From Candidatus Nanoarchaeia archaeon (GTDB taxonomy: Archaea; Nanobdellota; Nanobdellia; SCGC-AAA011-G17; JAFCDX01): a DNA stretch of 64,000 nt. Of the stretch, positions 1,187 through 64,000 are shown piece by piece; the stretch's first letter is position 1, and every line of letters begins with the position of its first letter. The notes beneath the pieces were generated by a model, which saw only the letters and a program-made list of their open reading frames with translations, searched no databases and was not told where the DNA came from. The position numbers and the translations under genes are program-made. The stretch spans positions 187,927 through 251,926 of the forward strand of contig JAQUOT010000001.1 in the NCBI GenBank assembly GCA_028716945.1, in the 5' to 3' direction.

Positions 1187-3832
1187 TTATTTTTTAGAAG
1201 AAAGTTCAAGTCTAGCTTTTTGTTGGTTTCTTATTTTTTTGAAAATATAATCTAATTGGTTTTTCTTCCAACCTTTTTTAACCAAAGCATCTTTAATATC
1301 AATTTCAGATTTTTTATCTGCCAATTGTTTTTTAACATATGCTTCTAATTTTATTTCTTGTTCTTTATTTGAAATTGGAGATCCTCTTTTTATTATATAA
1401 TATTGCCAATATATGAAAACTCCAACAATTACAACTACTACAAATAATATTATTAAAATATACCATGGGAAACTTGATCCACAATCGGCCTTACACCATC
1501 CCTCTTCTAATGGATGACATACTCCATCTCCACATTGATATTCTGGTTCTTCAGTTATTTCTGTTTTAGTTGTAATAGAACATTGTTCTGAAGTAGAACT
1601 TAACTGATTTCCTGTGGTTGTATCATAAGTATAAACTGTTCTTGTTCCTATTCCATCTCCTTCGGGATCTATACAATCTCCTAATCTCTGTTCGTAAGAA
1701 CTTTGACTAGCCATAACAGAAGTTATTATACTACAAATTCCACCAATACAACATTTAACTGAATCTGATGAAGCTACAGAAATAAATTGTCCGGTTGTTC
1801 CAGTACATTGTTGATTTTCTAAACATATTTGTCCATCTAAATTATTACAAGTATAATCAGAATAATCTATTGTAAGTTCTTTACATTGCCCAGTACTAAG
1901 ATCTCTTGATTGACAAGACACACATTCTTCATCTTCTAAAGTACAAGTAGTAGTACAACTTGGATCACATGCATCTCCTTTCCCATCATTATCACAATCT
2001 GCTTGATCCTCATTATAAATGTATATGCAATTATCTTCATCATCACAAATTCCATCTTCATCATAATCATCTTCACATTCTAAGCAAGCAGCATTAGATA
2101 CACAAGCACTATCTGCACAATCTGTTAATCCATTACAATTATTATCAATATTATCAGTACAACTAGTTTCTGATTGAGCACAAGAAGAAGGGGTACATCC
2201 TCCATTATTACATCCATACCCATATGTTTGACAATCAACAACTAAAGTCCATACATTATTTTTACATTCTTGTACATTAGTTCCTAAACATCTTAACTGA
2301 TTTTCTTGACAAACAGCAGCTATACAACTTGTAGCAGATGTACAACAATTTAAACAATCACTTACTCCAGTTATAAGACTAGAACATGTTTGTCCAGATG
2401 TACAACAAACACCATTTTTTTGAGCACAAGTTTGTGAATTAGAAGAAGTAGTACCACATTGATTAGCAGTGCCTGCACCACCACAAGTTTCAGCAGCACT
2501 AACATTACAAGTTAATGTCCCTGTTTTAGATAGATTAGTTCCACAATTTGTTGAAACAATTTTATTTCCACAAAACGAACTTAGGTCTGGAGTAAATATA
2601 ATGGGAGTACATCCACTTCCTCCTACGCCTGCAGCACCACTAACAGTACAACTTTTAATTAATGAAAATTGATTAGTACATGCAGCATCTGTACAATATT
2701 GTTGCCCACCTATACCGGGATTAAAAACTTGACAAATAGACCAAGTTGAACAAGTTGATGTTGTACAAACTCCTTTAGATCCACTTCCTCCTGAAGAAGA
2801 AATATTTGAACTATTAATTTTTTTACAAAGGGTACCAATATCTCCTATATCTCCAACATTACATTTTGAATTTGGTACATATGTTGTACAATTATAAGTA
2901 GTATTTACCCACCTTGTTCCTCCACAATAATAAAAATTTCCAGAGGTACATAAATATTTTCCCCTCATACCAGCAGTACAATTTATTCCATTAAAGTTAA
3001 TTTGAGAAGTATCTCCACAAGTTTTAGCAGTAAATACTACTTTATTTGACAAAGCTCCATTCCATACCCAAACAACATATTTTTGTCCAGGTTCTAAAAC
3101 ATAACTTGGAGATAAGGGTTGTACATTTCCAGCTACATCTCCAGAACCGGTTAATTTTATATTAAACTCATTAAGTGTAAAGGTTTCGGTTGCTTTTGAT
3201 GTATCTTTTACTTCTATAGCATAATAGGTTGATGTAGAAGGATCTGCATTACTTATTTCTCCTTTAAAAACATCAATACTATAAGTTCCACTACTAGGAA
3301 CACTTCCACCACTAAAAGTTATATTTACTTTTGATTTAGTTCCTTCACAAGAAGTTGTAATAGTTGAAGATAAAGTTACGGGGGTTATTATACTTCCTGC
3401 TCCACCCGAAGTTGTGGGTGTAACACATTTTCCACTGCTACATATTTTACCATAATCAGAACAATCTATTTTTCCAATATAAAATGAATTTACAGTATTT
3501 CCACAATACCATTCTCCTAAAAGAGTACCTGTAGTATCTTGTCCAATATCTTTAAGACAATAATCAGAACCTACTACTTGGGTTGTAGAGCTAGAACCAA
3601 TCGCAGAAGTAGTTAATGTAATTTTACTAATTTTACCTTGGATATTATAATTCCAATAACTAGAACTAGAACCATCTGATTTTATACATGAATAAGTAGA
3701 AGCTTCTAAAGTTCTTGTATTATCTGAATTTGTTCCAAATAAATTAGTTAAAAAATTATTTATTGAAAAAGCAAATACAATTGGAGTTACTAAGATTAAT
3801 AATAAAGAAAGTACAATCAAGCTCTTTTTCAT
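1187..3832 (-). CDS. Giant Cys-rich surface protein (signal peptide, many Cys-rich and beta-rich repeats, C-terminal TM helix, short basic cytoplasmic tail)
   Basis: ORF track 1187..3877. I moved the start to Met-16 (ATG 3830-3832) because everything upstream is the conserved promoter shared with the copy at 1146. C-terminus has the TM helix FPWYILIILFVVVVIVGVFIYW plus a lysine-rich tail. Confidence 0.6.
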   Translation of the reverse strand: MKKSLIVLSLLLILVTPIVFAFSINNFLTNLFGTNSDNTRTLEASTYSCIKSDGSSSSYWNYNIQGKISKITLTTSAIGSSSTTQVVGSDYCLKDIGQDTTGTLLGEWYCGNTVNSFYIGKIDCSDYGKICSSGKCVTPTTSGGAGSIITPVTLSSTITTSCEGTKSKVNITFSGGSVPSSGTYSIDVFKGEISNADPSTSTYYAIEVKDTSKATETFTLNEFNIKLTGSGDVAGNVQPLSPSYVLEPGQKYVVWVWNGALSNKVVFTAKTCGDTSQINFNGINCTAGMRGKYLCTSGNFYYCGGTRWVNTTYNCTTYVPNSKCNVGDIGDIGTLCKKINSSNISSSGGSGSKGVCTTSTCSTWSICQVFNPGIGGQQYCTDAACTNQFSLIKSCTVSGAAGVGGSGCTPIIFTPDLSSFCGNKIVSTNCGTNLSKTGTLTCNVSAAETCGGAGTANQCGTTSSNSQTCAQKNGVCCTSGQTCSSLITGVSDCLNCCTSATSCIAAVCQENQLRCLGTNVQECKNNVWTLVVDCQTYGYGCNNGGCTPSSCAQSETSCTDNIDNNCNGLTDCADSACVSNAACLECEDDYDEDGICDDEDNCIYIYNEDQADCDNDGKGDACDPSCTTTCTLEDEECVSCQSRDLSTGQCKELTIDYSDYTCNNLDGQICLENQQCTGTTGQFISVASSDSVKCCIGGICSIITSVMASQSSYEQRLGDCIDPEGDGIGTRTVYTYDTTTGNQLSSTSEQCSITTKTEITEEPEYQCGDGVCHPLEEGWCKADCGSSFPWYILIILFVVVVIVGVFIYWQYYIIKRGSPISNKEQEIKLEAYVKKQLADKKSEIDIKDALVKKGWKKNQLDYIFKKIRNQQKARLELSSKK

Positions 3833-3868
3833 ATAAATAATATTAAAATTTATATATTTAAATCTTTT
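3647..3868 (-). repeat. About 220-bp direct repeat, copy B (promoter and signal-peptide cassette)
   Basis: Identical to 963..1182. Confidence 0.85.
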
Positions 3869-3873
3869 TATTT

Positions 3874-5895
3874 TCAAAATAAAGGTTTTATTCTGGTTTC
3901 TTTCAAAGCTTCCTTAATTTGTTCCTCTTTCCACCCTTTTATTCTTAAAGAACTTATAATTTGTTCTTTTGGAATACCTTGATTTATTTTAACTTGAATA
4001 TAATTTGATAATCTTGCTAAACTTAATTCTTTTTCAATATCGGATTGTGGCCAACCTGCTCTTTCTAATTCCTCTTTTATATTCTTCAAAGGAACTTTTG
4101 CATTTAAAGATTTTTGAATATATTCTTTCATTTTTTCAACATTAACAGGTCTTACTTTTATTGTAGGTTCTTGTTTTATTTCTTTTACAAAAGTTTGAGG
4201 AGCAACTTCTTTTGGTTGAACTATCGGACTTGATTCTTCAACAACTGCTCTTTTTCTTTGTACATAAGTATAAATTATAATTACTAAAATCATAATGAAA
4301 ACTATTCCAGAAATTAAACTTACTCCAATAAGCACCTTATTTGATTTATTTTCAAGATTAGTGTTAGTACCTAAATTAACATTTGTAGTTGTTCCTGCTA
4401 AAACAGTAGAAGTACAAGAAATAGAACAGCAAATTCCTGATCCCGAATGTAATAAAGTAGAACTACTACAAGTTTGATTACTTCCACAAACATAACCATT
4501 TTCTAAAGAGCAAGAACAATCTGAATCTCCTCCAACGCAAGATATAGAACAACCATCATTTATTCCACAAGTAGAACCAGTACAAGATTCATTAATTGCA
4601 GGTCTTCCTGTTAAAGTTCCACAATTATTTTCATCAATACAAGTTCTTGTTCTTACATTATTAACACAAGAAGTCCAATTTGTACAATTCCAAGTTTCAG
4701 AACAGGAAGAAGTAGAATTTGTAATATTAATTAAGAATAAATTACCAACAACATACAATCCTAAACTATCATTAGCACTAAATCTTATTAAATTGGTTCC
4801 AGTCCAGTTTGCTTTTGGAACAAATTCTGCTTCATCATTAGAATTTATAAAAATAGAAATAGAATTATTTCCGGTGAAATTATAAATTAATTTTTGTCCA
4901 TCTGGTTCTGAGAAATAATCCTCTAATTCTAAACTATCATTGGTATTTTTTCTCCAAGACATATTATCAAAATTATCTTTTAATATAGGAGGAGAATTTA
5001 ACATATCAATACTGCTTGAATTTACATAAGTTCCTTTAATCGTATCGTTAGCACTAATAGTACATGTCCATTCATCTATATGACTTTCAGTTATCTGTAC
5101 AGAAATATTACAAGATTTTCCATTTACCCAAGAATCTCCAGAACAAGATACATCTCCAGATTTAAATGGACTAGCAAAATTAGTTTCATTCCACAAAATG
5201 TATTTAACATTAACAGTACTACTATCCGTATCTTTAACAATAGAAGAACAATTTACATAATCTTTTACTCTAAACTTATTTGAACCAGTTAAATTAGTAA
5301 AAGAAACATCTGTTATTGTAGGAGGATTAGTTGTTACAGGAGCAGAAACTGTAAAACTTTTTGTATCTGAAATTAAAACATCTGCACTGTAATTTAAAAT
5401 GAATTCTAAAGTATAAGTTCCAGCACTTAAGGCAGATAATCCAGAAAAAGCAGATATAGGAGTACTTACAGTAACTTCAGAAAGCGTTGAAAATGCTCTT
5501 CCAGGTTGTTCAGGATTTTCCCAAGCCCAATCAGGACTATCATGACTTCCATCTTTAAAAATTTGACCATCAATACAATTTTTTGGATTTGCATTTGAGT
5601 TAGTTAAAAAATTTTCTAAAGTTAGAGTACTACGTTGTATAACTTGGTCTCCAGAATCTTTTATACCTATATAAACATTTGAAGACCCATTACAAGGAAT
5701 AACATCGCCTGCTAAAAATTTTATTGAAATATCTCCAGTTAATGATTGCCCTGCAGTTATAGTATCTAAATCAATATTATCTTTAACAACGTTTCCAGTA
5801 ATAGATGGCTTCATTAACATAAAAACTAAAAATGAGAATACAAATATTGCAAATATAAAAACGCTCAATTCTCTATCTTTTTTAATATGTACCAC
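3874..5895 (-). CDS. Large surface protein: signal anchor, Ig/PKD-like beta domains, Cys-rich stalk, TM helix, cytoplasmic tail with repeated K-G-W-x-x-Q motif
   Basis: 673-aa ORF. N-terminal hydrophobic segment; C-terminal Cys-rich region (CSETWNCTNWTSC...), then TM helix VLIGVSLISGIVFIMILVIIIY and a tail carrying ...RAGWPQSDIEKEL... and ...RIKGWKEEQIKEAL... Confidence 0.55.
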   Translation of the reverse strand: MVHIKKDRELSVFIFAIFVFSFLVFMLMKPSITGNVVKDNIDLDTITAGQSLTGDISIKFLAGDVIPCNGSSNVYIGIKDSGDQVIQRSTLTLENFLTNSNANPKNCIDGQIFKDGSHDSPDWAWENPEQPGRAFSTLSEVTVSTPISAFSGLSALSAGTYTLEFILNYSADVLISDTKSFTVSAPVTTNPPTITDVSFTNLTGSNKFRVKDYVNCSSIVKDTDSSTVNVKYILWNETNFASPFKSGDVSCSGDSWVNGKSCNISVQITESHIDEWTCTISANDTIKGTYVNSSSIDMLNSPPILKDNFDNMSWRKNTNDSLELEDYFSEPDGQKLIYNFTGNNSISIFINSNDEAEFVPKANWTGTNLIRFSANDSLGLYVVGNLFLINITNSTSSCSETWNCTNWTSCVNNVRTRTCIDENNCGTLTGRPAINESCTGSTCGINDGCSISCVGGDSDCSCSLENGYVCGSNQTCSSSTLLHSGSGICCSISCTSTVLAGTTTNVNLGTNTNLENKSNKVLIGVSLISGIVFIMILVIIIYTYVQRKRAVVEESSPIVQPKEVAPQTFVKEIKQEPTIKVRPVNVEKMKEYIQKSLNAKVPLKNIKEELERAGWPQSDIEKELSLARLSNYIQVKINQGIPKEQIISSLRIKGWKEEQIKEALKETRIKPLF

Positions 5896-17188: not shown

Positions 17189-17338
17189 GGAGCGGTAGCT
17201 CAGAAAGGTTTTGAAGTTTAAGACCTTGAGCAACCTGGGAGAGCATAGAAATATCTCAAACCACGCTGAAGCCGTGGATGAAAGGTTATACGTCTAGTAT
17301 ACCTTGCCAAATCGGGGGTTCAAATCCCCCTCGCTCCA
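17189..17338 (+). tRNA. tRNA-Phe (anticodon GAA) with three insertions: D-loop about 27 nt, 16 nt at position 26/27, about 31 nt in the variable region
   Basis: Manual fold: acceptor GGAGCGG/TCGCTCC (G-U at pair 7), D-stem GCTC/GAGC, anticodon arm CCACG-CTGAAGC-CGTGG, T-arm GGGGG-TTCAAAT-CCCCC, discriminator A. The variable-region insert forms a hairpin TATAC-gtcta-GTATA. Confidence 0.5.
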
Positions 17339-18026
17339 TTTTCTTTATATTTTTAATATTAGAACTTCTTATTAATTTAATAAAAGAGGAGGCATTATTA
17401 TAACCGCTTATTTGTATTTTATATTTTTCATACCTTTTATTAGTTCTTTTATCTATATAATTTTCATGTCCTACATAATGATCTATCTTTTGAATTTTAA
17501 TCCAATCAGATATTTTGTATATTAAATTTTTATCTTTTAGACCAAGATTAATAACTGGATAAAATTTATATTTTCCGTGATTCTTTTTTAAACACAAAGA
17601 ACCATCTGTATCAAAAATTCCTTTAATGAATGCTTTAGCATAAATTTTATTATCCCATATCCATCGAGGAACCTTATTTCTATAATTTATTTTTTTATAA
17701 CCTATAATATTAAGAAAAGATAATATCCCTTTAGATCTCTTTGTTAAGATTAAAGTATTAATCTTTTTCTTTTGATATAAATTCATCTTTACATTGAATA
17801 AAAACAAAACTTTATCTTTAATATAGTTTGAATAATTCCTCTCATCTTTGAGATTACTAAAAATAGAAAAAATATAATCATTGCTTCCTAAATTATAATA
17901 AACATGGCCATCTCCAGACAAAATACCTAAAAATTCTGACAAGTCTCTAGAAGAGGATTTAGGAAAAATAATTTTATTCTTAATATCTTGGTGACTTAGT
18001 TGAATATCTGATAAATCAAATTTCAT
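17286..18026 (-). CDS. LAGLIDADG-family homing-endonuclease-like protein, copy 1
   Basis: Motifs LGILSGDGHV and KGIFDTDGSL (two LAGLIDADG-type helices, so a single-chain enzyme). Start set at MKFDLSDI (ATG 18024-18026) because upstream sequence is conserved non-coding in copy 2. The last about 17 codons are antisense to the tRNA-Phe 3' half. Confidence 0.55.
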   Translation of the reverse strand: MKFDLSDIQLSHQDIKNKIIFPKSSSRDLSEFLGILSGDGHVYYNLGSNDYIFSIFSNLKDERNYSNYIKDKVLFLFNVKMNLYQKKKINTLILTKRSKGILSFLNIIGYKKINYRNKVPRWIWDNKIYAKAFIKGIFDTDGSLCLKKNHGKYKFYPVINLGLKDKNLIYKISDWIKIQKIDHYVGHENYIDKRTNKRYEKYKIQISGYNNASSFIKLIRSSNIKNIKKMERGGFEPPIWQGILDV

Positions 18027-18048
18027 GATTAATAAAAAGCGAATTTGA

Positions 18049-18115
18049 TTTATAAATCTGGCGCGCACCCATCTGCAAGTTGCAATTTGTTAGAATATAT
18101 ATTTTGTGGAATATA
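18049..18115 (-). promoter_or_regulatory. Conserved about 65-bp upstream element of the LAGLIDADG paralogues (TATA box TTTATAAA about 23 nt before the ATG, plus GC-rich palindromic block)
   Basis: tttataaatctggcgcgcacccatctgcaagttgcaatttgttagaatatatatttt is nearly identical at 63404..63460. Contains palindromes GCGCGC and TTGCAA-C-TTGCAA. Confidence 0.4.
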
Positions 18116-53203: not shown

Positions 53204-53328
53204 TTTCTTTGATTATTTTTTAGTTTTATAGGCATTTATAAGCCTTTCTAGAATTAGCGACTAATTATTTTTATTACTGGTTGTGAAGTAAAGGTAATTT
53301 TAAAGTATTGATAAGATTTATATAGTTT

Positions 53329-53940: not shown

Positions 53941-54620
53941 ACCAATAATTCATGCTCTTTTTTTATTTCTTTTCCATCTAAATTTAGAATTCTAATTATT
54001 TTTCCTTTTCTTTTAGCTAATAATCTTGCTTTAGCAAAATCATCTTCACTTTCTTTAGGAATTATTAAATCTGTAATTTCATAAATATGTTTTATTATCA
54101 AATTACTAAAATCTTCTTTAACATCAAAAGTAAATTCTTTTGTAATATCTGTATTTTCAAATGAAGCAGAACAAAAATTATCTTTTAATGTACCTCCTGG
54201 TTTAGGTAAGGAATCTTTACAAGACAAATTGCAATTATCTGCTCTTAATTTCAATAATAAAAAATCAAACTTGAATTTTTCAATTATTTCTAATAATTTT
54301 TCTTTGGTAATTTCTTGTTCGGTAATGTCTGCCCTGTAAACTTTTCCCCTCTTAGAATATTCATTTTGTAAATCTAATTCTTTTTCAAAGTCTCTAAAAG
54401 CGACTATTGCTCCAGAAATATTAATTTTTGAAGAAGCTTCTTTAGCAATTAAGTAACATAAGAAGTTTGAAAACTCAAAACTTGTTTTTACAGATAATTT
54501 TTTAGATTTTTTTAAAGTAATTAAAGCTCTATCAGTATAATTACCTTTTCCAAATCTTTTAAATTGTTCATGAGCTAATTCGCTTCCTTTATTTTCAAAT
54601 ATTTCTTTTATGAAATTCAT
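53937..54620 (-). CDS. Hypothetical protein (227 aa)
   Basis: ORF only; no motif recognised. Confidence 0.3.
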   Translation of the reverse strand: MNFIKEIFENKGSELAHEQFKRFGKGNYTDRALITLKKSKKLSVKTSFEFSNFLCYLIAKEASSKINISGAIVAFRDFEKELDLQNEYSKRGKVYRADITEQEITKEKLLEIIEKFKFDFLLLKLRADNCNLSCKDSLPKPGGTLKDNFCSASFENTDITKEFTFDVKEDFSNLIIKHIYEITDLIIPKESEDDFAKARLLAKRKGKIIRILNLDGKEIKKEHELLV

Positions 54621-54726
54621 TTTTCACCTTGAATCATTTTATTATATTTTCCTTGTCCTATTAAAACCCAGTAGATTACTCCAACTGCAGTTATTCCAAG
54701 CATTACTATAAGCCAATTATTCATTT

Positions 54727-55221
54727 TTAAAGTTTTCCCATCTTACCTAAATGAAATTGGTAAGATAAATTATTAAATTCATTTGAATTATATAAATAAG
54801 ATTCTAATCTCCCACACAAAAATACATCTTTTATTTCATTTAATAAAATTATCCTACTACACGAAGTACAAGAAGGATCTCCTGGAAACTTACCAACCTC
54901 TCCCCCTTTATCTAATTTAACATGATATAATGTAGAATTTTTTATTTTAGAAGGATTATTTCTTAATGCTAATTGTATTGCATAATCCTCAGCATGTATT
55001 GCCCTACACAATTCTAAATGAGTTCCTCCTTCTAAATCAGTTCTTAAACAAGGATCACAAATATCTACACCAACAGGGAGATTATTTGCTTGAGATATTA
55101 AATTTCCATAAAAATCTACTATTATTACCCCTCGTTTAGATTTCTTACATTTAGAAAGTTTAGCTATACTTGTACAAATTTCTATATATTTTTTAATATC
55201 ATTAGAGTTAATTATTTCCAT
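54727..55221 (-). CDS. dCMP/cytidine deaminase family zinc enzyme
   Basis: ...SKRGVIIVDFYGN... and ...CRAIHAEDYAIQLA... (H-A-E) and ...PSCTSCSRIIL... (PC-x2-C). Confidence 0.55.
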   Translation of the reverse strand: MEIINSNDIKKYIEICTSIAKLSKCKKSKRGVIIVDFYGNLISQANNLPVGVDICDPCLRTDLEGGTHLELCRAIHAEDYAIQLALRNNPSKIKNSTLYHVKLDKGGEVGKFPGDPSCTSCSRIILLNEIKDVFLCGRLESYLYNSNEFNNLSYQFHLGKMGKL

Positions 55222-55792
55222 TTTTGTCCACCAAATAATTTAATATTGTAATACATTGTGAAGTAAAATAGTTTGTTCTTCCTAAACTAAATACTTCTTT
55301 TGTGTATCTTTTTATAAATTTTTTGTTGTTTTTAGGAATTCCTTCATGGTCTCCTAAAATAAATATTGGATTTTCTTTTAATCCTATATTAGAAATATCT
55401 TTTCCTCTTTTATCCAATAAATAAAAGTTTTTCTTACCTGATTCAACTAATTCTTTTATTAAAGCTTGAAAAGATTTTTTCTCTACAAAGATTCCTGGAA
55501 AAGCTTTTATTTTTTTACCTTGTTTATACTTCCATAAAACACTTTTTAATAAATTACCTACATCTTTTTTAGATATAGGCATTTCAGAATCATAAATAAA
55601 TTCGATATGTCTTGGTGGATCTGGTGGTCCATTAAGAATTAAATGAAAAATTGTATCTTCACGCATGTTATTTGAAACAAAAAAAGCATTAATTATAGAA
55701 TGTATAACTATGTCTAAACGTCCTGCTTGCATTAAATCATTAAAATTTCCTGAGGTTTGTCCATGATTGGATATTAAGATAAATTCTCTCAT
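55208..55792 (-). CDS. trmY: tRNA (pseudouridine54-N1)-methyltransferase TrmY-like (SPOUT, COG1901)
   Basis: MREFILISNHGQTSGNF...GRLDIVIHSIINAFFVSNNMREDT...LILNGPPDPP... closely follows the TrmY N-terminal pattern. Confidence 0.55.
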   Translation of the reverse strand: MREFILISNHGQTSGNFNDLMQAGRLDIVIHSIINAFFVSNNMREDTIFHLILNGPPDPPRHIEFIYDSEMPISKKDVGNLLKSVLWKYKQGKKIKAFPGIFVEKKSFQALIKELVESGKKNFYLLDKRGKDISNIGLKENPIFILGDHEGIPKNNKKFIKRYTKEVFSLGRTNYFTSQCITILNYLVDKNGNN

Positions 55793-55844
55793 AATTAATT
55801 CTAAATATTAACCTTTATAAATCTTAACTAAGTTTAAACATTAT

Positions 55845-55939
55845 AGCCCCTTAGTGTAGTGGCCAAATTGATTAAAAATCAAGGCTAGGCATACGAGACT
55901 CTGGATCTTGTGACGGAAGTTCGAATCTTCCAGGGGCTA
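55845..55939 (+). tRNA. tRNA-Gln (anticodon CUG) with about 22-nt D-arm intron
   Basis: Acceptor AGCCCCT/AGGGGCT (A1-U72 as in archaeal tRNA-Gln), anticodon arm CGAGA-CTCTGGA-TCTTG, T-arm GGAAG-TTCGAAT-CTTCC, discriminator A. D-arm insert contains hairpin TTGAT-taaaa-ATCAA. Confidence 0.55.
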
Positions 55940-55940
55940 C

Positions 55941-56013
55941 GCTCCCATAGTCTAGCGGTTAAGGATATGAGCTTCTCGAGCTCGTGACCTGGGTTCAAAT
56001 CCCAGTGGGAGCA
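55941..56013 (+). tRNA. tRNA-Glu (anticodon CUC), intronless, 1 nt downstream of tRNA-Gln
   Basis: Acceptor GCTCCCA/TGGGAGC, anticodon arm TGAGC-TTCTCGA-GCTCG, T-arm CTGGG-TTCAAAT-CCCAG. Confidence 0.65.
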
Positions 56014-56183
56014 TAATCAACTTCATTCTTAACTCACAGCGCTCAAATAATTATCCCTTCTTATAAGACTTATAACCTTAGTTCTTAACTCTGAGAGTTA
56101 GCAACAGTTATGATGTTGCTCTAGTAAACTATTATATCCTAAATCACAATAATATTTAAAAAGATAATTGAACTAAATTTAGT

Positions 56184-56366
56184 ATGAAAAACTCGTTAAA
56201 TGAGCTACTTATTTATCTAGGGATATTGATAGGATTATTTAATACATTTATGATACCAAATATATTGGAGATATCTAAAATATTCTGGTGGATTTCTGGT
56301 ATCGCGGTATTAATATTTACTATACCTACGCTTATTAAAGCATATCAAGTTATTATAGGCAAATAA
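56184..56366 (+). CDS. Small 2-TM membrane protein (hypothetical)
   Basis: 60-aa hydrophobic ORF. Confidence 0.25.
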   Translation: MKNSLNELLIYLGILIGLFNTFMIPNILEISKIFWWISGIAVLIFTIPTLIKAYQVIIGK

Positions 56367-56384
56367 ATTATAGGGGTTAAAAAG

Positions 56385-56636
56385 ATGTTTAATAAAAAAG
56401 ATTTATCAAATGTTAAAACAATATTCTTGAGCCCATTATTTTGGAAATATTCTACAATCACTTTATCAGAAATATTTTGTGTTTTTGTTATTTCCAATAT
56501 ATTATTTTCTACTGACCCTTGGTTTACAAATCTATATAAAACCCCCTATGTTATTTTCTTATTATTATTCCTCTTCCTTTATTATGTAATGGAAATATTT
56601 AAACAAAGGGAAAACTTACAAAAAGTAAAAATATAA
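56385..56636 (+). CDS. Small 2-TM membrane protein (hypothetical)
   Basis: 83-aa hydrophobic ORF preceded by an SD-like ggggttaaaaag. Followed by hairpin TTATCTT-ctcg-AAGATAA plus a T-tract (terminator-like). Confidence 0.25.
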   Translation: MFNKKDLSNVKTIFLSPLFWKYSTITLSEIFCVFVISNILFSTDPWFTNLYKTPYVIFLLLFLFLYYVMEIFKQRENLQKVKI

Positions 56637-56861
56637 AATAGACATCTGTCGATTTATCTTCTCGAAGATAATAATCTTTTTATACCTCTTTATCCTTATA
56701 CTAAAAACAGCGCACAAAAGTCTGATTAACAAAACAAAGGACAGGAAACTGACCTTAGTAGAGTTAAGGACAAAGTTGGTTCCGCACGGCGGGAGCATCT
56801 ATAATTTTACTATTTCTAAATTATAAATAAACTTTATATAGTTGCTTCACTTAATTATATT

Positions 56862-57827
56862 ATGTTAAGGTTAGAAATTCCTAAAGAAGATTTGGTAAAT
56901 CTATATGAAAAAGAGAAACTTACAACTTTTCAAATAGCGGAAAAACTTAATTGTTGTCAAGCAACAATCTGGAAAAGATTAAAAGAATATGATATAAAAA
57001 CAAGAATTTCTGGAATTGAGAGGGTTAAAATAACAAAAGAAAAACTTTTTGATTTATATATAAATAAAAAATATTCTACTTGGAAAATTGAAAAAATAAC
57101 TGAAATCCCAAGGGGAACGATACATAGAAAACTTAAAGAGTTTGGAATTCAATCAAGAGATATTTCCGACTCCCATATTATCTATGAAAAAAGAGATTTT
57201 TCTGGGGATCCTTTAGAAAAAGCTTACCTTATAGGATTTAGAATTGGGGATCTGGGAGTTAGAAAAAGAGGTGCTAAAAGTAAATTAATCTGTGTTGCTA
57301 GTGGAAGCACCATAGAAGAACAGATAATTCTAATAAAAAATTTATTTAAAAATTATGGAAAAGTTTGGATTAAAAAATCAAAAAATAATAAAATAAATGT
57401 ATATGTATACCTTAATTTATCTTTTGGTTTTTTATTAGATAAAAAGATTCCAAAAGAATTAGAAAAAAACAAAAAACTATTTTTTGCATTCCTGGGAGGA
57501 TTTACAGATGCGGAAGGGAGTATGAAATTAAATAAAAATATGGCTTATTATTCTTTAGGAAATTATGATAGTAAATTATTATTTAAGATATATAACTATC
57601 TAAATAAATATGGAATAAAATGTAATAAACCTCATTCAGATAATAGAATTGGAACTTTCAATAGTCAGGGATATAAATACAACTCAAATTATTGGACATT
57701 AAAAATTTGTAGAAAAGAAGAATTATACAAATTACTTAAAGAATTAAAACCTCACATTAAACATAAAAATAAAATAAAAGATTTAAATATAGTAGAAAAT
57801 AACCTAATCGAAAGGATTAAAAGTTAA
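56862..57827 (+). CDS. LAGLIDADG-family endonuclease-like protein with two N-terminal HTH repeats, copy 3
   Basis: Two HTH-like repeats (...TTFQIAEKLNCCQATIWKRLKEY... and ...YSTWKIEKITEIPRGTIHRKLKEFG...), then LAGLIDADG-type motifs LIGFRIGDLGV and LGGFTDAEGS. Confidence 0.5.
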   Translation: MLRLEIPKEDLVNLYEKEKLTTFQIAEKLNCCQATIWKRLKEYDIKTRISGIERVKITKEKLFDLYINKKYSTWKIEKITEIPRGTIHRKLKEFGIQSRDISDSHIIYEKRDFSGDPLEKAYLIGFRIGDLGVRKRGAKSKLICVASGSTIEEQIILIKNLFKNYGKVWIKKSKNNKINVYVYLNLSFGFLLDKKIPKELEKNKKLFFAFLGGFTDAEGSMKLNKNMAYYSLGNYDSKLLFKIYNYLNKYGIKCNKPHSDNRIGTFNSQGYKYNSNYWTLKICRKEELYKLLKELKPHIKHKNKIKDLNIVENNLIERIKS

Positions 57828-57844
57828 AAAGATAATATATTAAC

Positions 57845-59371
57845 ATGAAAAAGTTTTACGTAACAACCCCAATATATTATGTAAATGATATAGCTAGTAT
57901 AGGCCATGCTTACACTACTTTTGCAGCAGATACCTTAGCTAGATGGCATAGATTAAAAGGAGAAGATGTTTTTTTCTTAACAGGTTTAGATGAAAACTCT
58001 CAAAAAACAGTCAAAGCAGCAGAAACTGCAGGTGTTAAAGATTTAAAAGAATATACTAATCAAATGGCTTTGAAATGGACTTCTACTTGGAAAAATCTAA
58101 ACATTTCTAATAATGGATTTATAAGAACTACTGAAGCTAAACATAAAAAATTAGTAAAAGAATTCTTTATGAAAGTGTATGAAAAAGGGGATATTTACAA
58201 AGGGAAATATGAAGGATTATATTGCGAAGGATGTGAATGTTTTTATACTGAATCAGACCTAGTAGAAGGAAAATGTCCTTTTCACAAAACAGAACCAAAG
58301 TTTATATCTGAAGAAAATTATTTTTTTAAATTAACAAAATATGCAGATAAAATATTAACTTACATAGAAAAAAATCCTGATTTTATTTTACCTAATTCCA
58401 GAAAAAATGAAGTTGTAGAATTTATTAAGATGGGATTAAAAGATATTAGTATTTCTAGACCAAATGTTGATTGGGGAATTCCCTTACCAATAGACAAAAA
58501 TCATCATTTCTGGGTATGGTTTGATGCTTTACCAAATTATATCACTGGAGCTCCAAAATATTGGCCTGCAAATTGTCATTTATTAGCAAAAGATATTTTA
58601 AGATTCCATTGCGTTATTTGGCCTGCTATGTTAATGAGTGCAGGTTATGACTTACCAAAACAATTATTTGTACATGGATTTTTAACTATTAATGGACAAA
58701 AGATGTCAAAATCTTTAGGCAATGCTATAGACCCAAATGTTTTAGCTCAAAAATATTCTGTAGATTCATTAAGATATTATTTAATGCGTAGCATTCCATT
58801 TGGAGAAGATGGAGATTTTTCAGAAAAAGCATTAATAACAAGAACAAATACAGAATTAGCAGATTCTCTGGGTAATTTATTAAATAGAGTTGTTTCTATG
58901 TGTGAAAAATATTATGATTCTAAAATACCAAAAGCAAAAGAAGACAAAGAATTAAGTTCAAAATTAGATTTTAAAAAAATTGATTCCTTAATATTAAATT
59001 ATAAGTTACATGAGGCTTTAGCAGAAATATTTTACTTTGTAGATCAATGTAATAAATATGTAAATGAAAAAGAACCTTGGAATTTAGCTAAAAATCAGAA
59101 AGAAGATGAACTTGAAAAGGTTTTATTTAATTTGGCAGAATCATTAAGAATAATTTCTCAATTAATTTATTCTTTTATGCCAGAAACAGCAGAAAAAATA
59201 AATGAACAGCTTGGATTTAAATTAAGAGATAGTTTTGACTTGAAATGGGGTAATGCAAAATCAAAAGGTATAAAAAAAGGAGAAACTTTGTTTAAAAAAA
59301 TTGGCCTAACTGATGGACTTAAAAAATCTTCAAATGATGGTTTAAAAGGGGGACCTAGAAATGGACTTTAA
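57845..59371 (+). CDS. metG: Methionyl-tRNA synthetase, catalytic core only
   Basis: ...PIYYVNDIASIGHAYTT... (HIGH), C-x2-C...C-x2-H knuckle (CEGCEC...CPFH), KMSKSLGN. Confidence 0.85.
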   Translation: MKKFYVTTPIYYVNDIASIGHAYTTFAADTLARWHRLKGEDVFFLTGLDENSQKTVKAAETAGVKDLKEYTNQMALKWTSTWKNLNISNNGFIRTTEAKHKKLVKEFFMKVYEKGDIYKGKYEGLYCEGCECFYTESDLVEGKCPFHKTEPKFISEENYFFKLTKYADKILTYIEKNPDFILPNSRKNEVVEFIKMGLKDISISRPNVDWGIPLPIDKNHHFWVWFDALPNYITGAPKYWPANCHLLAKDILRFHCVIWPAMLMSAGYDLPKQLFVHGFLTINGQKMSKSLGNAIDPNVLAQKYSVDSLRYYLMRSIPFGEDGDFSEKALITRTNTELADSLGNLLNRVVSMCEKYYDSKIPKAKEDKELSSKLDFKKIDSLILNYKLHEALAEIFYFVDQCNKYVNEKEPWNLAKNQKEDELEKVLFNLAESLRIISQLIYSFMPETAEKINEQLGFKLRDSFDLKWGNAKSKGIKKGETLFKKIGLTDGLKKSSNDGLKGGPRNGL

Positions 59372-59528
59372 CATAAAAAATTGTACTTTATGTTATTCAA
59401 TAAAAGGTGAACAAATTCTTTTAGGTATTAAAAAAAAGGGTTTTGGAAAAGGAAATTTAAATGGGTTTGGTGGGCATGTAGAAGATAATGAAACAATTAA
59501 AAATAGCAATATACAAGTAATAATGTGA
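59361..59528 (+). pseudogene. Truncated NUDIX (MutT-like) hydrolase N-terminal remnant
   Basis: 55-aa ORF MDFNIKNCTLCYSIKGEQILLGIKKKGFGKGNLNGFGGHVEDNETIKNSNIQVIM. It contains the start of the Nudix box (G-x5-E...) but stops before the R-E-x-x-E-E helix. It overlaps the metG stop and the next start. Confidence 0.4.
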
Positions 59529-59534
59529 TCTAAA

Positions 59535-59900
59535 ATGGTAGAAGGCATAAAAAAAGCAGAACATTGTGGGGATAAAATAACTATAGATGAATTTGGAAAA
59601 GTAGATCTAAGAATTGCTCAAATTAAAGCAGTAAAAAATCATCCTAATGCAGATAAATTATATATTCTTGATGTAAGTTTAGGCAAAGGAGAACATGATG
59701 TTCAAATTGTAGCAGGAATAAGGCAAGCCTATACTGAAGATGAATTAATTGGAAAGAAAATTATAATGGTTAGAAACTTAGAACCTGCAGTATTAAGAGG
59801 AGTAGAAAGTGAAGGTATGTTATTAGCTGCAGAATTCAAAGGAAAAATAGTTCTTTTAACAGTTGATAAAGATATAGAAACTGGGGCTAAAATAAAATAA
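59535..59900 (+). CDS. Stand-alone tRNA-binding domain protein (Trbp111/CsaA-like; equivalent to a MetRS C-terminal domain)
   Basis: ...KVDLRIAQIKAVKNHPNADKLYILDVSLGKGEHDVQIVAGI...MVRNLEPAVLRGVESEGMLLAAEF... is the OB-fold tRNA-binding domain signature. Confidence 0.7.
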   Translation: MVEGIKKAEHCGDKITIDEFGKVDLRIAQIKAVKNHPNADKLYILDVSLGKGEHDVQIVAGIRQAYTEDELIGKKIIMVRNLEPAVLRGVESEGMLLAAEFKGKIVLLTVDKDIETGAKIK

Positions 59901-59902
59901 TT

Positions 59903-60304
59903 ATGAAAAAAGTTTTAGTTTGGGGAACCTTTGATGGATTACATAAAGGACATTTAGAATTTCTAAAAAATGCGAAGAGTTTAGGAGATAAATTATATAT
60001 TATAATTATCCCAGACAAAGCAGTAAAAGAAAACAAAGGGAAATACCCTATAAAAAATGCAGAAGAAAGAAAAAAAGAATTATTAAAATTAAAATTTGTA
60101 ACTGAAGTTTATAGCGGACTTTATGAGGAGAATTTAAAATACATTTTAAAATTAAAACCAGAGGTAGTTATCTTCGGATATGATCAAAAAACTAAATGGG
60201 AAGAAAATCTAAAGAAAACTCTTTCTTCAAAAGGAATTTTTCCAGAATATATTTATTTAGAAGAATATAATAATGGAATTCATTCTAGTGATTTAAATAA
60301 ATAA
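59903..60304 (+). CDS. ribL: Archaeal FAD synthetase RibL-like nucleotidyltransferase
   Basis: ...VLVWGTFDGLHKGHLEFLKNAKSLGD...IIIPDKAVKENKG... (HxGH nucleotidyltransferase motif and RibL-like spacing). Confidence 0.55.
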   Translation: MKKVLVWGTFDGLHKGHLEFLKNAKSLGDKLYIIIIPDKAVKENKGKYPIKNAEERKKELLKLKFVTEVYSGLYEENLKYILKLKPEVVIFGYDQKTKWEENLKKTLSSKGIFPEYIYLEEYNNGIHSSDLNK

Positions 60305-60323
60305 AAAAAAGAAAAAAATAAAT

Positions 60324-60506
60324 TTATTTACAACATTTTGATGCCCACATTAATTTATGTAGTCCCATCAAAATTATTAAAACAGCAAATAATTGTACTA
60401 TAGTTGGTTGTTTAAGCCAAGCCCAAAGACCAATTGCTATTAAAATTAGTCCACCAACTAAAATCATTGGTTTAGAATGTTTGCACATTCCCATTTCTTT
60501 TGCCAT
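60324..60506 (-). CDS. Mini 2-TM membrane protein (paralogue of 60511..60681)
   Basis: MAKEMGMCKHSKPMILVGGLILIAIGLWAWLKQPTIVQLFAVLIILMGLHKL... Confidence 0.3.
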   Translation of the reverse strand: MAKEMGMCKHSKPMILVGGLILIAIGLWAWLKQPTIVQLFAVLIILMGLHKLMWASKCCK

Positions 60507-60510
60507 TTTC

Positions 60511-60681
60511 TTATTTCATTAACTTATAATTTCTTACAAGTTTACCTATACCTATTACTAAAACTACTAAAGCTACAATCCAACCTTGCAAATTAAGCAA
60601 TGAAGCAGGTATTACACCTAATTGTGCTAGAACTAGCCATAGACCAAGTATAGTTACTAACCAAGCTGTTAGTTTTGCCAT
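60511..60681 (-). CDS. Mini 2-TM membrane protein (not in track; 56 aa)
   Basis: My translation of the minus strand gives MAKLTAWLVTILGLWLVLAQLGVIPASLLNLQGWIVALVVLVIGIGKLVRNYKLMK. It shares the (I/A)(L/I)GLW-x-(V/W)L-x-Q architecture with the neighbouring ORF. Confidence 0.3.
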   Translation of the reverse strand: MAKLTAWLVTILGLWLVLAQLGVIPASLLNLQGWIVALVVLVIGIGKLVRNYKLMK

Positions 60682-60786
60682 TTTTTCCTCCTTTTATTGA
60701 GTTATATGAGAGAAATGACTCCCAACCACCTAAGAATCTAAAGGACTTTAGGTTTATAAAGATTTTTATAAGGTTTTAAAAGTATA

Positions 60787-60882
60787 TGAGCCCGCGGAGA
60801 TTTGAACTCCGGGCCCCCACCAATGATTTGGTTTAAATCCAATTTATCAGAGTGGTGCGCTACCAGGCTGCGCCACGGGCTC
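60787..60882 (-). tRNA. tRNA-Ile (anticodon GAU) with about 22-nt intron at or near the canonical 37/38 position
   Basis: Reverse complement: acceptor GAGCCCG/CGGGCTC, D-arm GCGC-AGCCTGGTA-GCGC, anticodon stem CCACT/GGTGG, loop CTGATAA followed by insert attggatttaaaccaaatcatt, T-arm CGGAG-TTCAAAT-CTCCG, discriminator A. Confidence 0.55.
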
Positions 60883-60961
60883 ATGAGATATATTGTTAAA
60901 AGATAATTTATAAGGTTTTTGAATTGATAAAGTTTAAATAATATTAAATTTTAACTATCCT

Positions 60962-61630
60962 ATGCAGAGGTGGCTACATAAATTAGAACATTGGGTAGAT
61001 AAATTAATACCTATCTCTTTAATTGTTTTAATTGGTTTAATCATAGGAGAATTATTCTATAAAGAACAAATACATCCTTATTTAACTTTTGTAACAATAG
61101 CAGATTGGGGTATAATAGGTTTATTTGTTATAGATTTAACTTTTAAATGGTTCAGAGTAAGAAATATTCCAAAATTCTTAAAAAAATATTGGTTAGATAT
61201 TTTAGCTATATTTCCGTTTTTTTTAGTTTTTAGAGCTTTAGAAGGAGTTGGAGAATTAATTACTGTAGTAAGCGAATACTTTACTCCTACACAAAAAGTA
61301 GTTCATGCTGGAACAGAAATAGGTAAAGAAGTTATAATAATAGAGGAAGGTACTGCTAAAATAATTAAAGAAGCTGAAGCAGCAGGAAAATTATCAAGAA
61401 CAGAAAGATTTGCAAGATTTTTAAGACCTTTAGCAAGGGCTCCAAGATTTTTACATTTAACAGATAAAGATACAAAAAAAGAATTTAAAAAAGAGATTAA
61501 ATTTATAGAAAAAGAAGAAAGAAAAGTAGTTAAAAAAGAAGAATCTTTCTTTGTAAGATTATATAAACATATAGTAAAAGTAATTGTCTTCTTTGAAAAA
61601 CCTTCTCATCATAAAAAGAGAAAGATTTAA
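60962..61630 (+). CDS. Membrane protein, ion-channel-like (hypothetical)
   Basis: About 4 TM segments, ...WLDILAIFPFFLVFR... resembles channel S5/S6-type helices. C-terminal charged domain. Confidence 0.3.
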   Translation: MQRWLHKLEHWVDKLIPISLIVLIGLIIGELFYKEQIHPYLTFVTIADWGIIGLFVIDLTFKWFRVRNIPKFLKKYWLDILAIFPFFLVFRALEGVGELITVVSEYFTPTQKVVHAGTEIGKEVIIIEEGTAKIIKEAEAAGKLSRTERFARFLRPLARAPRFLHLTDKDTKKEFKKEIKFIEKEERKVVKKEESFFVRLYKHIVKVIVFFEKPSHHKKRKI

Positions 61631-61673
61631 AAGAAGCGGCAGTTAACAACCACCGTCAAATTTTAAATAAAAA

Positions 61674-62687
61674 ATGGAAAAAAAAGAAATACTTGCACAT
61701 TTTAGTTATGGAAGTGCTATAAGAAATGCTATAGAAAAAATAACTAATGCTAATCGTGGAGTTTTAGTTGTTTTTGTTAAAGATAAGGGTATTAAAAAAA
61801 TAAGTGTTGGTGGTTTTAAAATAAATGAAGAGTTTTCTGAAGAAAGACTTGCTGAATTAGCAAAATTAGATGGAGCAATATTGGTAGATAATAAACTACA
61901 AAAAATAATTAGTGCTAATGTCTTATTAAATCCGAGTATAAAAATTCCTAGTACAGAAACAGGTACAAGACATCAAGCAGCAGAAAGAACTGCAAGACAA
62001 TTAGATACAATGGTTCTTGCTATTTCTGCAAAAACAGGAACTGCAATGGTATATCATGGAAATGGTAAATTAAAATTAAATAATTTAGGTAAAATATTCA
62101 CAAAGACTGGAGAAGCACTAAGAATTATTGAAAAGCATAGAGAATTATTTAAAGTTTTAATAAAAAAGTTTGATACTTTTGAATTATTAGAAATGGTTAC
62201 ATTAGAAGACCTTGCTTCTATATTTCAAAGAGAAAAAATAATGGATTCTGTTGCAGATATAATCTCTGTTTATTTAAGCGAATTAGGTGATGAAGGAGAA
62301 TTAACAGAATTACAATTAAAAGAAATTATAACTTATGTTCATGCAGAATTAGCTGCAATTATGGCAGATTATCATGATTATTTTAATTTTGATAAGATAA
62401 TTGAAGAATTAAAAGACTTAAAACGTGATGAAATTGTAGTTAAAGAAAACATTTTTAAAATATTCTTAGATAATAGAAAAAAAGAAGATACATTAATACC
62501 GAAAGGTTATAGAATATTAAAGAACATCCCTATTTTAACAGAAGAAAATATAAAGTTATTAATGGAAACTTTCCCAAGTTTAAAAGAATTAATTTCTGCT
62601 CAAGAAGAAGAATTAGCTGCTATCAAATCTATAGGAAATAAAAAGGCTAAAGCTATAAGAGAATATCTATTAAAAGCACAGATTTAA
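61674..62687 (+). CDS. DisA-like diadenylate cyclase (DAC domain, helical linker, C-terminal HhH)
   Basis: ...LDGAILVD..., ...TGTRHQAAERTARQ..., ...AISAKTG... (DAC motifs DGA / GTRH..A / S..TG). C-terminal ...EEELAAIKSIGNKKAKAIREYL is a helix-hairpin-helix. Confidence 0.55.
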   Translation: MEKKEILAHFSYGSAIRNAIEKITNANRGVLVVFVKDKGIKKISVGGFKINEEFSEERLAELAKLDGAILVDNKLQKIISANVLLNPSIKIPSTETGTRHQAAERTARQLDTMVLAISAKTGTAMVYHGNGKLKLNNLGKIFTKTGEALRIIEKHRELFKVLIKKFDTFELLEMVTLEDLASIFQREKIMDSVADIISVYLSELGDEGELTELQLKEIITYVHAELAAIMADYHDYFNFDKIIEELKDLKRDEIVVKENIFKIFLDNRKKEDTLIPKGYRILKNIPILTEENIKLLMETFPSLKELISAQEEELAAIKSIGNKKAKAIREYLLKAQI

Positions 62688-63382
62688 GAATTATTTCTAA
62701 AATAATAATATTTTTTCCAATGTTTGGGGTTATTAGGAGAGATAATTTTCATCCATTTATTTAACATAAATTCTCCTCTAATTGAAACCTTATATAAATC
62801 TAACCAATTATGATTTTTATGTTTATAAGAATAGATTGTAGAACGAATTCCTAATTTGTTTATTAAATTATTTAATTGTAATCCTAAAGGTTTAGAAGTG
62901 GTGCTTATCTCTAAACGAGGATATAATTTTTTATATTTTGGTTGTAAATATAAAGTTCCATCCGTATCAAAGATTCCTTTAACCACATTAATAGTATACT
63001 CCTTTCTATTTAAGAAACAAGAAGGTATACAAATATCAAATTTTTTACCAAGAGGTAATTTAAGAATTTTATTTTTAAATTCGATTAATGAATCATCCCA
63101 AATTTGAAATCCAAATACTTTTGTAGAAGGCATTTCTTTTGGTTTTATTTTTAAATCATAAACTTTTTTATATAAATCTATAATTTTATTATTATAATGT
63201 TCTTTATCATCAAACATATGCCCCCTTAAAGAATAAAGTCCTTTAGACGTATTTCCGTTTTTGTAAAAATTCATACTTCCATCTCCAATATGCAATCCTG
63301 TTTCTTCTGCTAATTCTATTATTGGTTTTTCTGGAAGTATAAGTTTAGTGCTTTGCTTAATGTCAGATAAATCAAACTTCAT
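62684..63382 (-). CDS. LAGLIDADG-family homing-endonuclease-like protein, copy 2
   Basis: MKFDLSDI... (first 8 aa identical to copy 1), motifs LHIGDGSM and KGIFDTDGTL. Confidence 0.55.
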   Translation of the reverse strand: MKFDLSDIKQSTKLILPEKPIIELAEETGLHIGDGSMNFYKNGNTSKGLYSLRGHMFDDKEHYNNKIIDLYKKVYDLKIKPKEMPSTKVFGFQIWDDSLIEFKNKILKLPLGKKFDICIPSCFLNRKEYTINVVKGIFDTDGTLYLQPKYKKLYPRLEISTTSKPLGLQLNNLINKLGIRSTIYSYKHKNHNWLDLYKVSIRGEFMLNKWMKIISPNNPKHWKKYYYFRNNS

Positions 63383-63403
63383 AATTAAGATAAGTAAATT
63401 TCA

Positions 63404-63460
63404 TTTATAAATCTGGCGCGCACATCTTGCAAGTTGCAATTTGTTAGAATATATATTTTA
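63404..63460 (-). promoter_or_regulatory. Conserved upstream element of the LAGLIDADG paralogues, second copy
   Basis: tttataaatctggcgcgcacatcttgcaagttgcaatttgttagaatatatatttt, versus 18049..18115. Confidence 0.4.
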
Positions 63461-63488
63461 GAGAATATATTTTAAATAAAAAGAAAAG

Positions 63489-63618
63489 CGCCTTAGGGAG
63501 GACTCGAACCTCCGACCACCTGATTAACAGTCTCACCTTTCCATATTGGAAAACAGGTGCTCTACCCTTCAGATCTTCTGAACCTAAAAGGCCAGATGGT
63601 TTGCTGAGCTACTAAGGC
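63489..63618 (-). tRNA. tRNA-Asn (anticodon GUU) with two introns (about 36 nt in the D-loop; 22 nt inside the anticodon stem, position 30/31)
   Basis: Reverse complement: acceptor GCCTTAG/CTAAGGC, D-stem GCTC/GAGC. After removing ttttccaatatggaaaggtgag the anticodon arm is CCTGA-CTGTTAA-TCAGG. T-arm GGAGG-TTCGAGT-CCTCC, discriminator G. Confidence 0.5.
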
Positions 63619-63657: not shown

Positions 63658-64000
63658 TTAATCAATAAAGTCTTTATTCTTTATCTTTTCAGGCAGATAT
63701 TTATCAGAAATAAAGCTTATAATACCACTTCTTAATTTATAACTATCCGCCCATTTAGCATAAGCATTCCATCCATTAAAACTTTCTAATAGATTATCAT
63801 AAATAATTTCATTGTTTTTGTATTGAGATATTCTAAATAATATTTTTCTTATATTTCTTTTTCTTAATAATTTATGATAATAGAAATTTCTAAAACCTAC
63901 AAAGTCTATGCCTTTTGATAAAGAGATTATTTTTGATTTTTCTGAATGCAACTCTAGTTTTAGCTCTTTATTTAGGAAATTATTTATTTGTTCCTTCCAA
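63658..64000 (-). CDS. Reverse transcriptase, C-terminal part (ORF is open to the window end)
   Basis: ...GIDFVGFRNFYYH... (RT block 7, F-L/V-G-F) and ...ESFNGWNAYAKWADSY... (thumb/X-domain G-W-x-x-Y motif). No in-frame stop up to position 64000. Confidence 0.5.
   Translation of the reverse strand, partial: WKEQINNFLNKELKLELHSEKSKIISLSKGIDFVGFRNFYYHKLLRKRNIRKILFRISQYKNNEIIYDNLLESFNGWNAYAKWADSYKLRSGIISFISDKYLPEKIKNKDFID

Follow-up and report, generated by a model that had tools for sequence, protein, structure and literature searches.

A probable DGR-type reverse transcriptase gene at the edge of a DPANN archaeal contig region, and a simple repeat that may switch the reverse transcriptase genes of its relatives

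The reverse transcriptase (RT) of Bordetella phage BPP-1 (bRT) is the prototype enzyme of diversity-generating retroelements (DGRs). An accessory protein (Avd or HRDC) is frequent in DGRs but is not universal. The BPP-1 DGR is made up of brt, avd, a template repeat (TR) and mtd with the variable region (VR). In archaea, DGRs of Nanoarchaeota SCGC AAA011-G17 were described by Paul et al. 2015 (PMC4372165), and DPANN archaeal DGRs were noted by Wu et al. 2018 (PMC5758913), who refer to a CPR/DPANN set. In bacteria, simple-sequence repeat (SSR) contingency loci include the poly-G tracts of Campylobacter, Neisseria and Helicobacter (reviewed in PMC11868660). In this study, we analyzed a 64,000-nt stretch of DNA (hereafter, the window), at the end of which lies part of an RT gene. 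The window RT belongs to the same RT family and to the same host group as the DPANN DGRs, and its relatives have the minimal layout of a target gene with VR, then TR, then RT. However, the window protein differs from the DPANN systems in that it is at most approximately 75% identical to any sequence found and carries a unique C-terminal tail.

The last 342 bases of the window are the end of the RT gene. On the minus strand, 113 sense codons (63999..63661; WKEQINNFLNKELKLELHSEKSKIISLSKGIDFVGFRNFYYHKLLRKRNIRKILFRISQYKNNEIIYDNLLESFNGWNAYAKWADSYKLRSGIISFISDKYLPEKIKNKDFID) are followed by the stop codon TAA (63658..63660). This frame is open up to the window edge, and stop codons are plentiful in the two other frames of the region. 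Thus, the gene is cut by the window, and its 5′ two thirds, including the catalytic YxDD and motif 4, lie beyond position 64000. The visible part spans the end of the palm, motif 7 and the thumb (Table 1). In motif 7, the residues G, D, F, V, G and F are invariant among 18 relatives, and the counterpart in bRT is RGINFLGY. The thumb motif pairs with SWSGHAQWADTH of bRT, and its G, W, A, Y, W and A are invariant in the relatives. The fragment as a whole retains 29 of the 29 columns that are invariant in the alignment of the 18 relatives. Because all these columns are retained, the fragment looks like a gene under selection and not like debris. A Pfam search detected no endonuclease or other domain in the tail, which is approximately 20 residues long (ISFISDKYLPEKIKNKDFID) and unique among 162 relatives. 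There is a weak match between the tail and the very C-terminal end of archaeal topoisomerase VI subunit A, with E = 0.017 for 2zbk_A and E = 0.0025 in NCBIfam, which may be due to chance or to a captured gene end. An earlier reading of this DNA (the sequence-only reading) had described an RT gene truncated by the window edge, with block 7 (F-V-G-F), a G-W-x-x-Y thumb-like motif and no endonuclease domain after the thumb. The open frame, the translation and the protein matches described below agree with this description, and only its sizes were slightly inaccurate: 113 residues are visible instead of 110, and the protein ends 33 residues past the G-W-N-A-Y motif instead of about 45.

Table 1. 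Positions of the features discussed in the text, in window coordinates.
Feature	Position	Strand	Basis
3′ third of a probable DGR-type RT gene	63658..63999	minus	translation; homologues to E = 2.5e-40; bRT match; 29/29 invariant columns
RT motif 7, G-I-D-F-V-G-F	63892..63912	minus	residues 30-36 (F-V-G-F, residues 33-36)
Thumb motif, G-W-N-A-Y-A-K-W-A-D-S-Y = GWNAYAKWADSY	63739..63774	minus	residues 76-87 (G-W-N-A-Y, residues 76-80)
Lineage-specific C-terminal tail	63661..63720	minus	Pfam search; comparison with relatives
tRNA-Asn(GTT) with two putative introns, not part of DGR	63489..63618	minus	hand-spliced 72-nt call by ARAGORN
Free-standing LAGLIDADG homing-endonuclease-like gene, 232 aa, not part of DGR	62684..63382	minus	Pfam PF14528 (LAGLIDADG_3), E = 2.6e-9
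Second LAGLIDADG-like ORF (paralogue)	17286..18068	minus	28% identical to the 62684..63382 ORF; same MKFDLSDI start; shared 5′ region
Second interrupted tRNA, 150 nt	17189-17338	plus	Rfam, 31.6 bits; no ARAGORN call

The sequence-only reading had placed the RT gene next to a tRNA-Asn gene and a LAGLIDADG gene, and both neighbors were confirmed, by ARAGORN after splicing and by Pfam, respectively. The tRNA-Asn(GTT) gene sits 40 nt downstream of the RT stop codon. In its unspliced form, this tRNA was missed by ARAGORN and by the Rfam gathering scan. When two inserts, one of 36 nt in the D-loop and one of 22 nt in the anticodon stem, were removed by hand, ARAGORN returned a perfect 72-nt cloverleaf of tRNA-Asn(gtt). 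The two putative introns would be non-canonical, and the exact borders of the inserts are inferred. The second interrupted tRNA in the window overlaps convergently with the second LAGLIDADG-like ORF. Just upstream of both LAGLIDADG genes, there is a 42-nt near-exact repeat with three mismatches (63428-63469 and 18074-18115), which probably marks a promoter and leader common to the two copies of a homing-endonuclease gene that was duplicated or is mobile. Furthermore, the Logan contigs L082-L085 (SRR22315509/SRR22315508), which are from the same organism, match the window from approximately 52,000 to 63,433. All of them break off shortly before the region of tRNA-Asn and RT is reached, approximately 51 nt upstream of the LAGLIDADG start. 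The shared breakpoint hints at strain heterogeneity or a repeat near 63,433.

We then compared the fragment with known proteins. At E ≤ 1e-3, 697 database proteins matched it, which is far more than chance would give; the best match had E = 2.5e-40, with identities of 70-72%, and the named matches were RNA-directed DNA polymerases of Nano-, Pace- or Aenigmarchaeota. The closest relative, with a protein-guided metagenome scan included, was only approximately 75% identical. The exact 61-mer of the window end was absent from both contig collections searched (genomes and metagenomes), no recorded gene product corresponded to the fragment, and the Pfam models gave no match to it. Among solved structures, the best match was 8ub7_A ("Reverse transcriptase", 328 aa; E = 3.5e-7), and the aligned part (RGINFLGY...SWSGHAQWADTHNL) takes in the thumb as well as motif 7. 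Over 121 residues, 8ub7_A shows 100% identity to brt of Bordetella phage BPP-1; 8ub7_A is thus the brt product, and the bRT structures (8ub7-8ube) are the closest solved ones. When a full-length relative (L003; 347 aa) was used, it aligned with residues 3-315 of the 328 residues of bRT at E = 5e-45, and the next-best match was the group II protein LtrA (2.7e-20). By these matches, the RT is closer to DGR RTs than to any other RT class. The relatives resemble bRT from end to end: they have a similar length (approximately 340 versus 328 aa), the GxxxSQ motif 4, YxDD and the thumb motif (S/G)W..(H/Y)A.WA(D/N).

The relatives themselves were examined as loci. We gathered approximately 160 related loci, of which 80 came from species-representative genomes and 80 from metagenomes, with several more added by exact protein look-up. 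Almost all the hosts are MAGs of Woese-, Pace-, Nano- or Aenigmarchaeota (DPANN). The complete RTs of the family are approximately 340 aa in length; motif 4 is present in its DGR-type form, G[NS]LTSQ, in 111 of 118 relatives, and YxDD is present in all 118. For the detection of TR/VR pairs, each locus was compared with itself by ungapped blastn, and the matches were filtered for mismatches at adenines of one copy. Where at least 700 nt upstream of RT was available (93 loci), a pair was found in 84 loci, and the order was the canonical one of target gene with VR, then TR, then RT. The mismatches fell at TR adenines in 1104 of 1153 cases (96%), and this adenine-specific difference between TR and VR is shared with BPP-1. 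When the adenine-bearing copy is taken as TR, the median distance from the TR end to the RT start codon is 28 nt. The VR lies upstream of TR on the same strand, with a median of 336 nt from the VR end to TR, and is located close to the 3′ end of an ORF, the median length of which is 268 codons. The VR-TR interval is mostly the tail of the target gene. In this interval, no ORF of Avd size was found in the relatives (the longest ORF has a median of 56 aa), which is a difference from BPP-1. A further difference is that the window RT and its relatives are cellular and archaeal, whereas the BPP-1 system is phage-borne. The target proteins extend 40-70 residues beyond VR, in a charged tail with a coiled-coil-like look.

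One of the relatives, found through the C-terminal half of the family, is a contig of Nanoarchaeota SCGC AAA011-G17 (L020). This genome has published DGRs (PMC4372165); the sequence-only reading had noted that DGRs are known in DPANN archaea. In three loci (L013, L039 and L061), the archaeal-type RT was found in bins labelled as bacterial ("bacterium", Paceibacterota and Dojkabacteria); either these loci were mis-binned, or CPR bacteria and DPANN archaea have exchanged the RT. In another two loci (L029 and L030), the DGR cassettes are 99.4% identical, whereas the flanks are only 81-97% identical. This suggests a recent transfer or an unusual conservation of the cassette.

Many RT genes of the relatives contain a simple repeat. 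The best 120 of the 697 protein matches were only 90-192 aa in length, and those read begin at motif 4 (MPLGNLTSQ...). These matches are short and C-terminal because many RT genes of the family are split into two overlapping ORFs. We measured the linker from the end of the N-terminal homology (...WLIKQIL) to G-MPLGN, that is, between RT motifs 3 and 4, in 118 distinct loci. A simple repeat was present in the linker of 67 of the 118 RT genes (57%). The repeats were poly-G (G6-G13), poly-C, or (AG)n/(GA)n/(TC)n with 4-14 units; an example is the tract at 9972-9997 of L001, and others are found in L047, L053/L108, L029/L030, L166-L173 and L101. The remaining 51 linkers, without a simple repeat, were 21-57 nt long, and all 51 genes were intact. 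The 67 repeat-bearing genes were in frame in 23 cases, shifted by +1 in 16 cases and shifted by +2 in 28 cases. This distribution does not depart from uniform (chi-square p = 0.20), and the association between repeat and frameshift is strong (Fisher p = 1e-15). In all 44 shifted genes, the shift is located exactly at the repeat, both frames are open across the tract, and a change of tract length alone would restore one full ORF. The shifted genes are conserved like the intact genes: YxDD is kept in 44 of 44 and G[NS]LTSQ in 42 of 44, and there is one further stop codon in total. When G/C runs of at least 8 or AG-type runs of at least 5 units were counted, 78 were found in 157 kb of RT genes versus 7 in 1.13 Mb of flanks, an approximately 80-fold enrichment per base. 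The poly-G tracts are usually followed by CGAAC and often lie within an inverted repeat (for example, gctcgttcg-G12-cgaacgagc in L047); the reverse form, cgttcg-C(n)-cgaacg, is seen in L075 and L043, and GCGAAC usually stands before the (AG)n tracts.

Sequences that are otherwise nearly identical differ in tract length. Over 3,694 nt, L053 and L108, which have (AG)11 and (AG)9, respectively, differ by five substitutions and, at the repeat, by one (AG)2 indel; VR contains three of the substitutions, and a fourth is just upstream of VR. The two nearly identical cassettes of L029 and L030 have G12 (shifted) and G13 (intact), respectively, and carry different VRs. Moreover, ten independent assemblies of one strain-level population, which are at least 99.2% identical over up to 1.6 kb, have G10 in six cases, G11 (in frame) in two cases and G12 in two cases; in one of the two G12 cases, a scaffold gap coincides with the tract.

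Three other readings of the window fragment were weighed against these results. The one that survives best is that the fragment is a dead remnant, namely a DGR RT gene that had already been inactivated or cut short in the genome. In favor of this, the window shows only a third of the gene, the independent Logan assemblies of the same organism break near the RT gene, and 44 of the 118 RT genes of the relatives are frameshifted. However, the visible part is open and has lost none of its invariant residues, and the frameshifts of the relatives are confined to one repeat tract in otherwise intact genes, which resembles switching and not decay. We consider a dead remnant unlikely.

Less probable still is that the fragment is the end of a group II intron RT/maturase or of a group II-like RT. 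The fragment has motif 7, the G-W-x-x-Y thumb motif and a related RT fold in common with the group II RT/maturases (LtrA and GsI-IIC RT), and it matches NCBIfam TIGR04416 (group II RT/maturase; 27.9 bits, E = 1.2e-6) and the group II maturase structure 6me0_C (E = 0.038). However, 27.9 bits is far under the 300-bit cut-off of TIGR04416, and bRT is the better match by five orders of magnitude for the fragment and by 25 orders for the full-length relative. In contrast to group II proteins, the window RT stops soon after the thumb motif, with neither a DNA-binding nor an En domain. No intron RNA was found anywhere in the window, where the Rfam gathering scan gave tRNAs only, and the 40 nt between the RT stop codon and the tRNA leave no room for intron domains V-VI. 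The relatives adjoin TR/VR pairs and are not embedded in introns. Neither a passing score with the family model together with maturase X plus D/En domains nor an embedding in intron RNA with domains V/VI downstream was found, and the view of the sequence-only reading that this is not a full group II intron protein is supported.

Equally improbable is a retron or defense-associated (DRT/UG/Abi) RT: the fragment has the short single-domain format and weak PADLOC matches to RT_UG17 (E = 5e-5) and RT_UG4 (E = 2e-4), but these scores reflect generic RT similarity (the full-length relative gives 181 bits with the generic "RT" model versus at most 110 bits with any UG class), no retron-specific model in PADLOC matched the fragment or its full-length relative, and the relatives are flanked by TR/VR pairs with adenine mutagenesis, which retrons and DRTs are not known to have.

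We conclude that the fragment, which comprises motif 7, the thumb and a short tail, very probably makes up the last 113 residues of a DGR RT in a DPANN archaeon, as judged from sequence comparison. The DGR reading is supported, and the group II intron and retron readings are not supported. The format named in the sequence-only reading, "DGR or retron-type", is thus supported in its first half, by the bRT match and the TR/VR pairs of the relatives, whereas nothing specific was found in support of its second. The window RT is a further DPANN case of an already known DGR system; it is ordinary and, alone, of modest interest. The finding that is out of the ordinary is the repeat in the RT genes of the relatives.

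Because the RT gene is on the minus strand, its 5′ part, TR, VR and the target gene should all lie above position 64000. From the geometry of the family, the complete RT gene is predicted to be approximately 1.04 kb in length, with its start near 64,700 (minus strand). A TR of 80-90 bp would end approximately 30 nt upstream of RT, near 64,730-64,820, and VR would be found approximately 340 nt farther upstream, near 65,150-65,250. Thus, both repeats are expected approximately 0.7-1.3 kb beyond position 64000 (about 64.7-65.3 kb). The target gene is predicted to have approximately 270 codons on the same strand, with VR at its 3′ end, and to reach approximately 66,000. By analogy with the BPP-1 paradigm, the RT would copy the TR transcript into cDNA and misincorporate nucleotides opposite template adenines. 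The cDNA would then overwrite VR, while TR would stay intact, and the C-terminal ligand-binding part of the target protein would be rewritten.

The window itself was searched for these elements. Self-comparison of the window, whose DNA is 72.5% A+T (27.5% G+C), detected no TR/VR-like pair; the adenine/thymine-biased matches were at most 53 nt in length at approximately 68% identity. This is consistent with the statement of the sequence-only reading that no TR/VR pair lies inside the window. The same reading had pointed to Cys-rich proteins of the window in connection with DGR targets. Cys-rich ORFs are indeed present (for example, 1190..3913 on the minus strand; 908 aa, 7.5% Cys). However, nothing links them to the DGR, and by tblastn, phmmer or a profile of target C-termini, none of the ORFs in the window showed similarity to the family's 83 target proteins. 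The suggestion of Cys-rich targets in the window thus finds no support.

The repeat in the RT genes of the relatives looks like a contingency locus, in which slipped-strand events would switch the DGR mutator gene on and off. At the level of the family, the evidence is strong, and we think it fairly likely that there the repeat causes heritable switching of RT expression. The likeness to the bacterial SSR loci concerns the repeat of the relatives only: it is an intragenic poly-G or dinucleotide tract in an AT-rich genome, its length varies among nearly identical sequences, each of the three phases is found, and apart from the tract the gene is intact. The difference is in the switched gene, which is an archaeal DGR mutator and not a surface or restriction-modification gene. 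bRT differs from many of the relatives in that it lacks the simple-sequence repeat between motifs 3 and 4. In the literature searched, beyond the reach of which lay Paul et al. 2017 (Nat Microbiol), neither repeats nor frameshifts were found to be described for the RT genes of DGRs.

Other explanations of the repeat were considered. (AG)n repeats are not error-prone on Illumina. A sequencing or assembly error is opposed by the finding that the (AG)n class shows the same frame distribution, and by the recurrence of tracts at one site across studies and platforms. Pseudogene decay of the repeat-bearing RTs is opposed by the lack of other lesions and by the retention of the catalytic motifs. In the case of a small intron, all 23 in-frame inserts, which reach up to 126 nt, are free of stop codons, the hairpins form simple stems and not bulge-helix-bulge structures, and no fixed excision rule restores the frame. 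All three explanations fit worse than a contingency locus. In addition to switching, transcriptional slippage on long G runs may provide a leaky route to the full-length protein.

Whether this applies to the window gene is a separate matter. Among the 30 nearest relatives of the window fragment, half carry the tract. The chance that the window RT gene carries one is about even, and the tract would sit approximately 250-300 nt past the window edge. There is no G or C run of 6 or more anywhere in the 64,000-nt window. That the window's own RT gene has such a tract, either poly-G or (AG)n, in the linker from motif 3 to motif 4, and that slippage of its length makes hypermutation of the target phase-variable, is a tentative proposal and seems to us rather doubtful.

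The fragment alone matters little: it adds another DPANN archaeon with a DGR, and it points annotators beyond this contig position for TR, VR and the target gene. The repeat has a practical consequence, because gene callers break these RTs into halves of approximately 200 and 150 aa. Therefore, the DGRs of this clade will be undercounted in any survey that accepts full-length RTs only. If the switch is real, it would be a clear case of SSR phase variation in archaea. It would constitute a two-layer bet-hedging, with a contingency locus inside the mutator gene itself, and these genome-reduced symbionts would control when they mutate, besides what they mutate.
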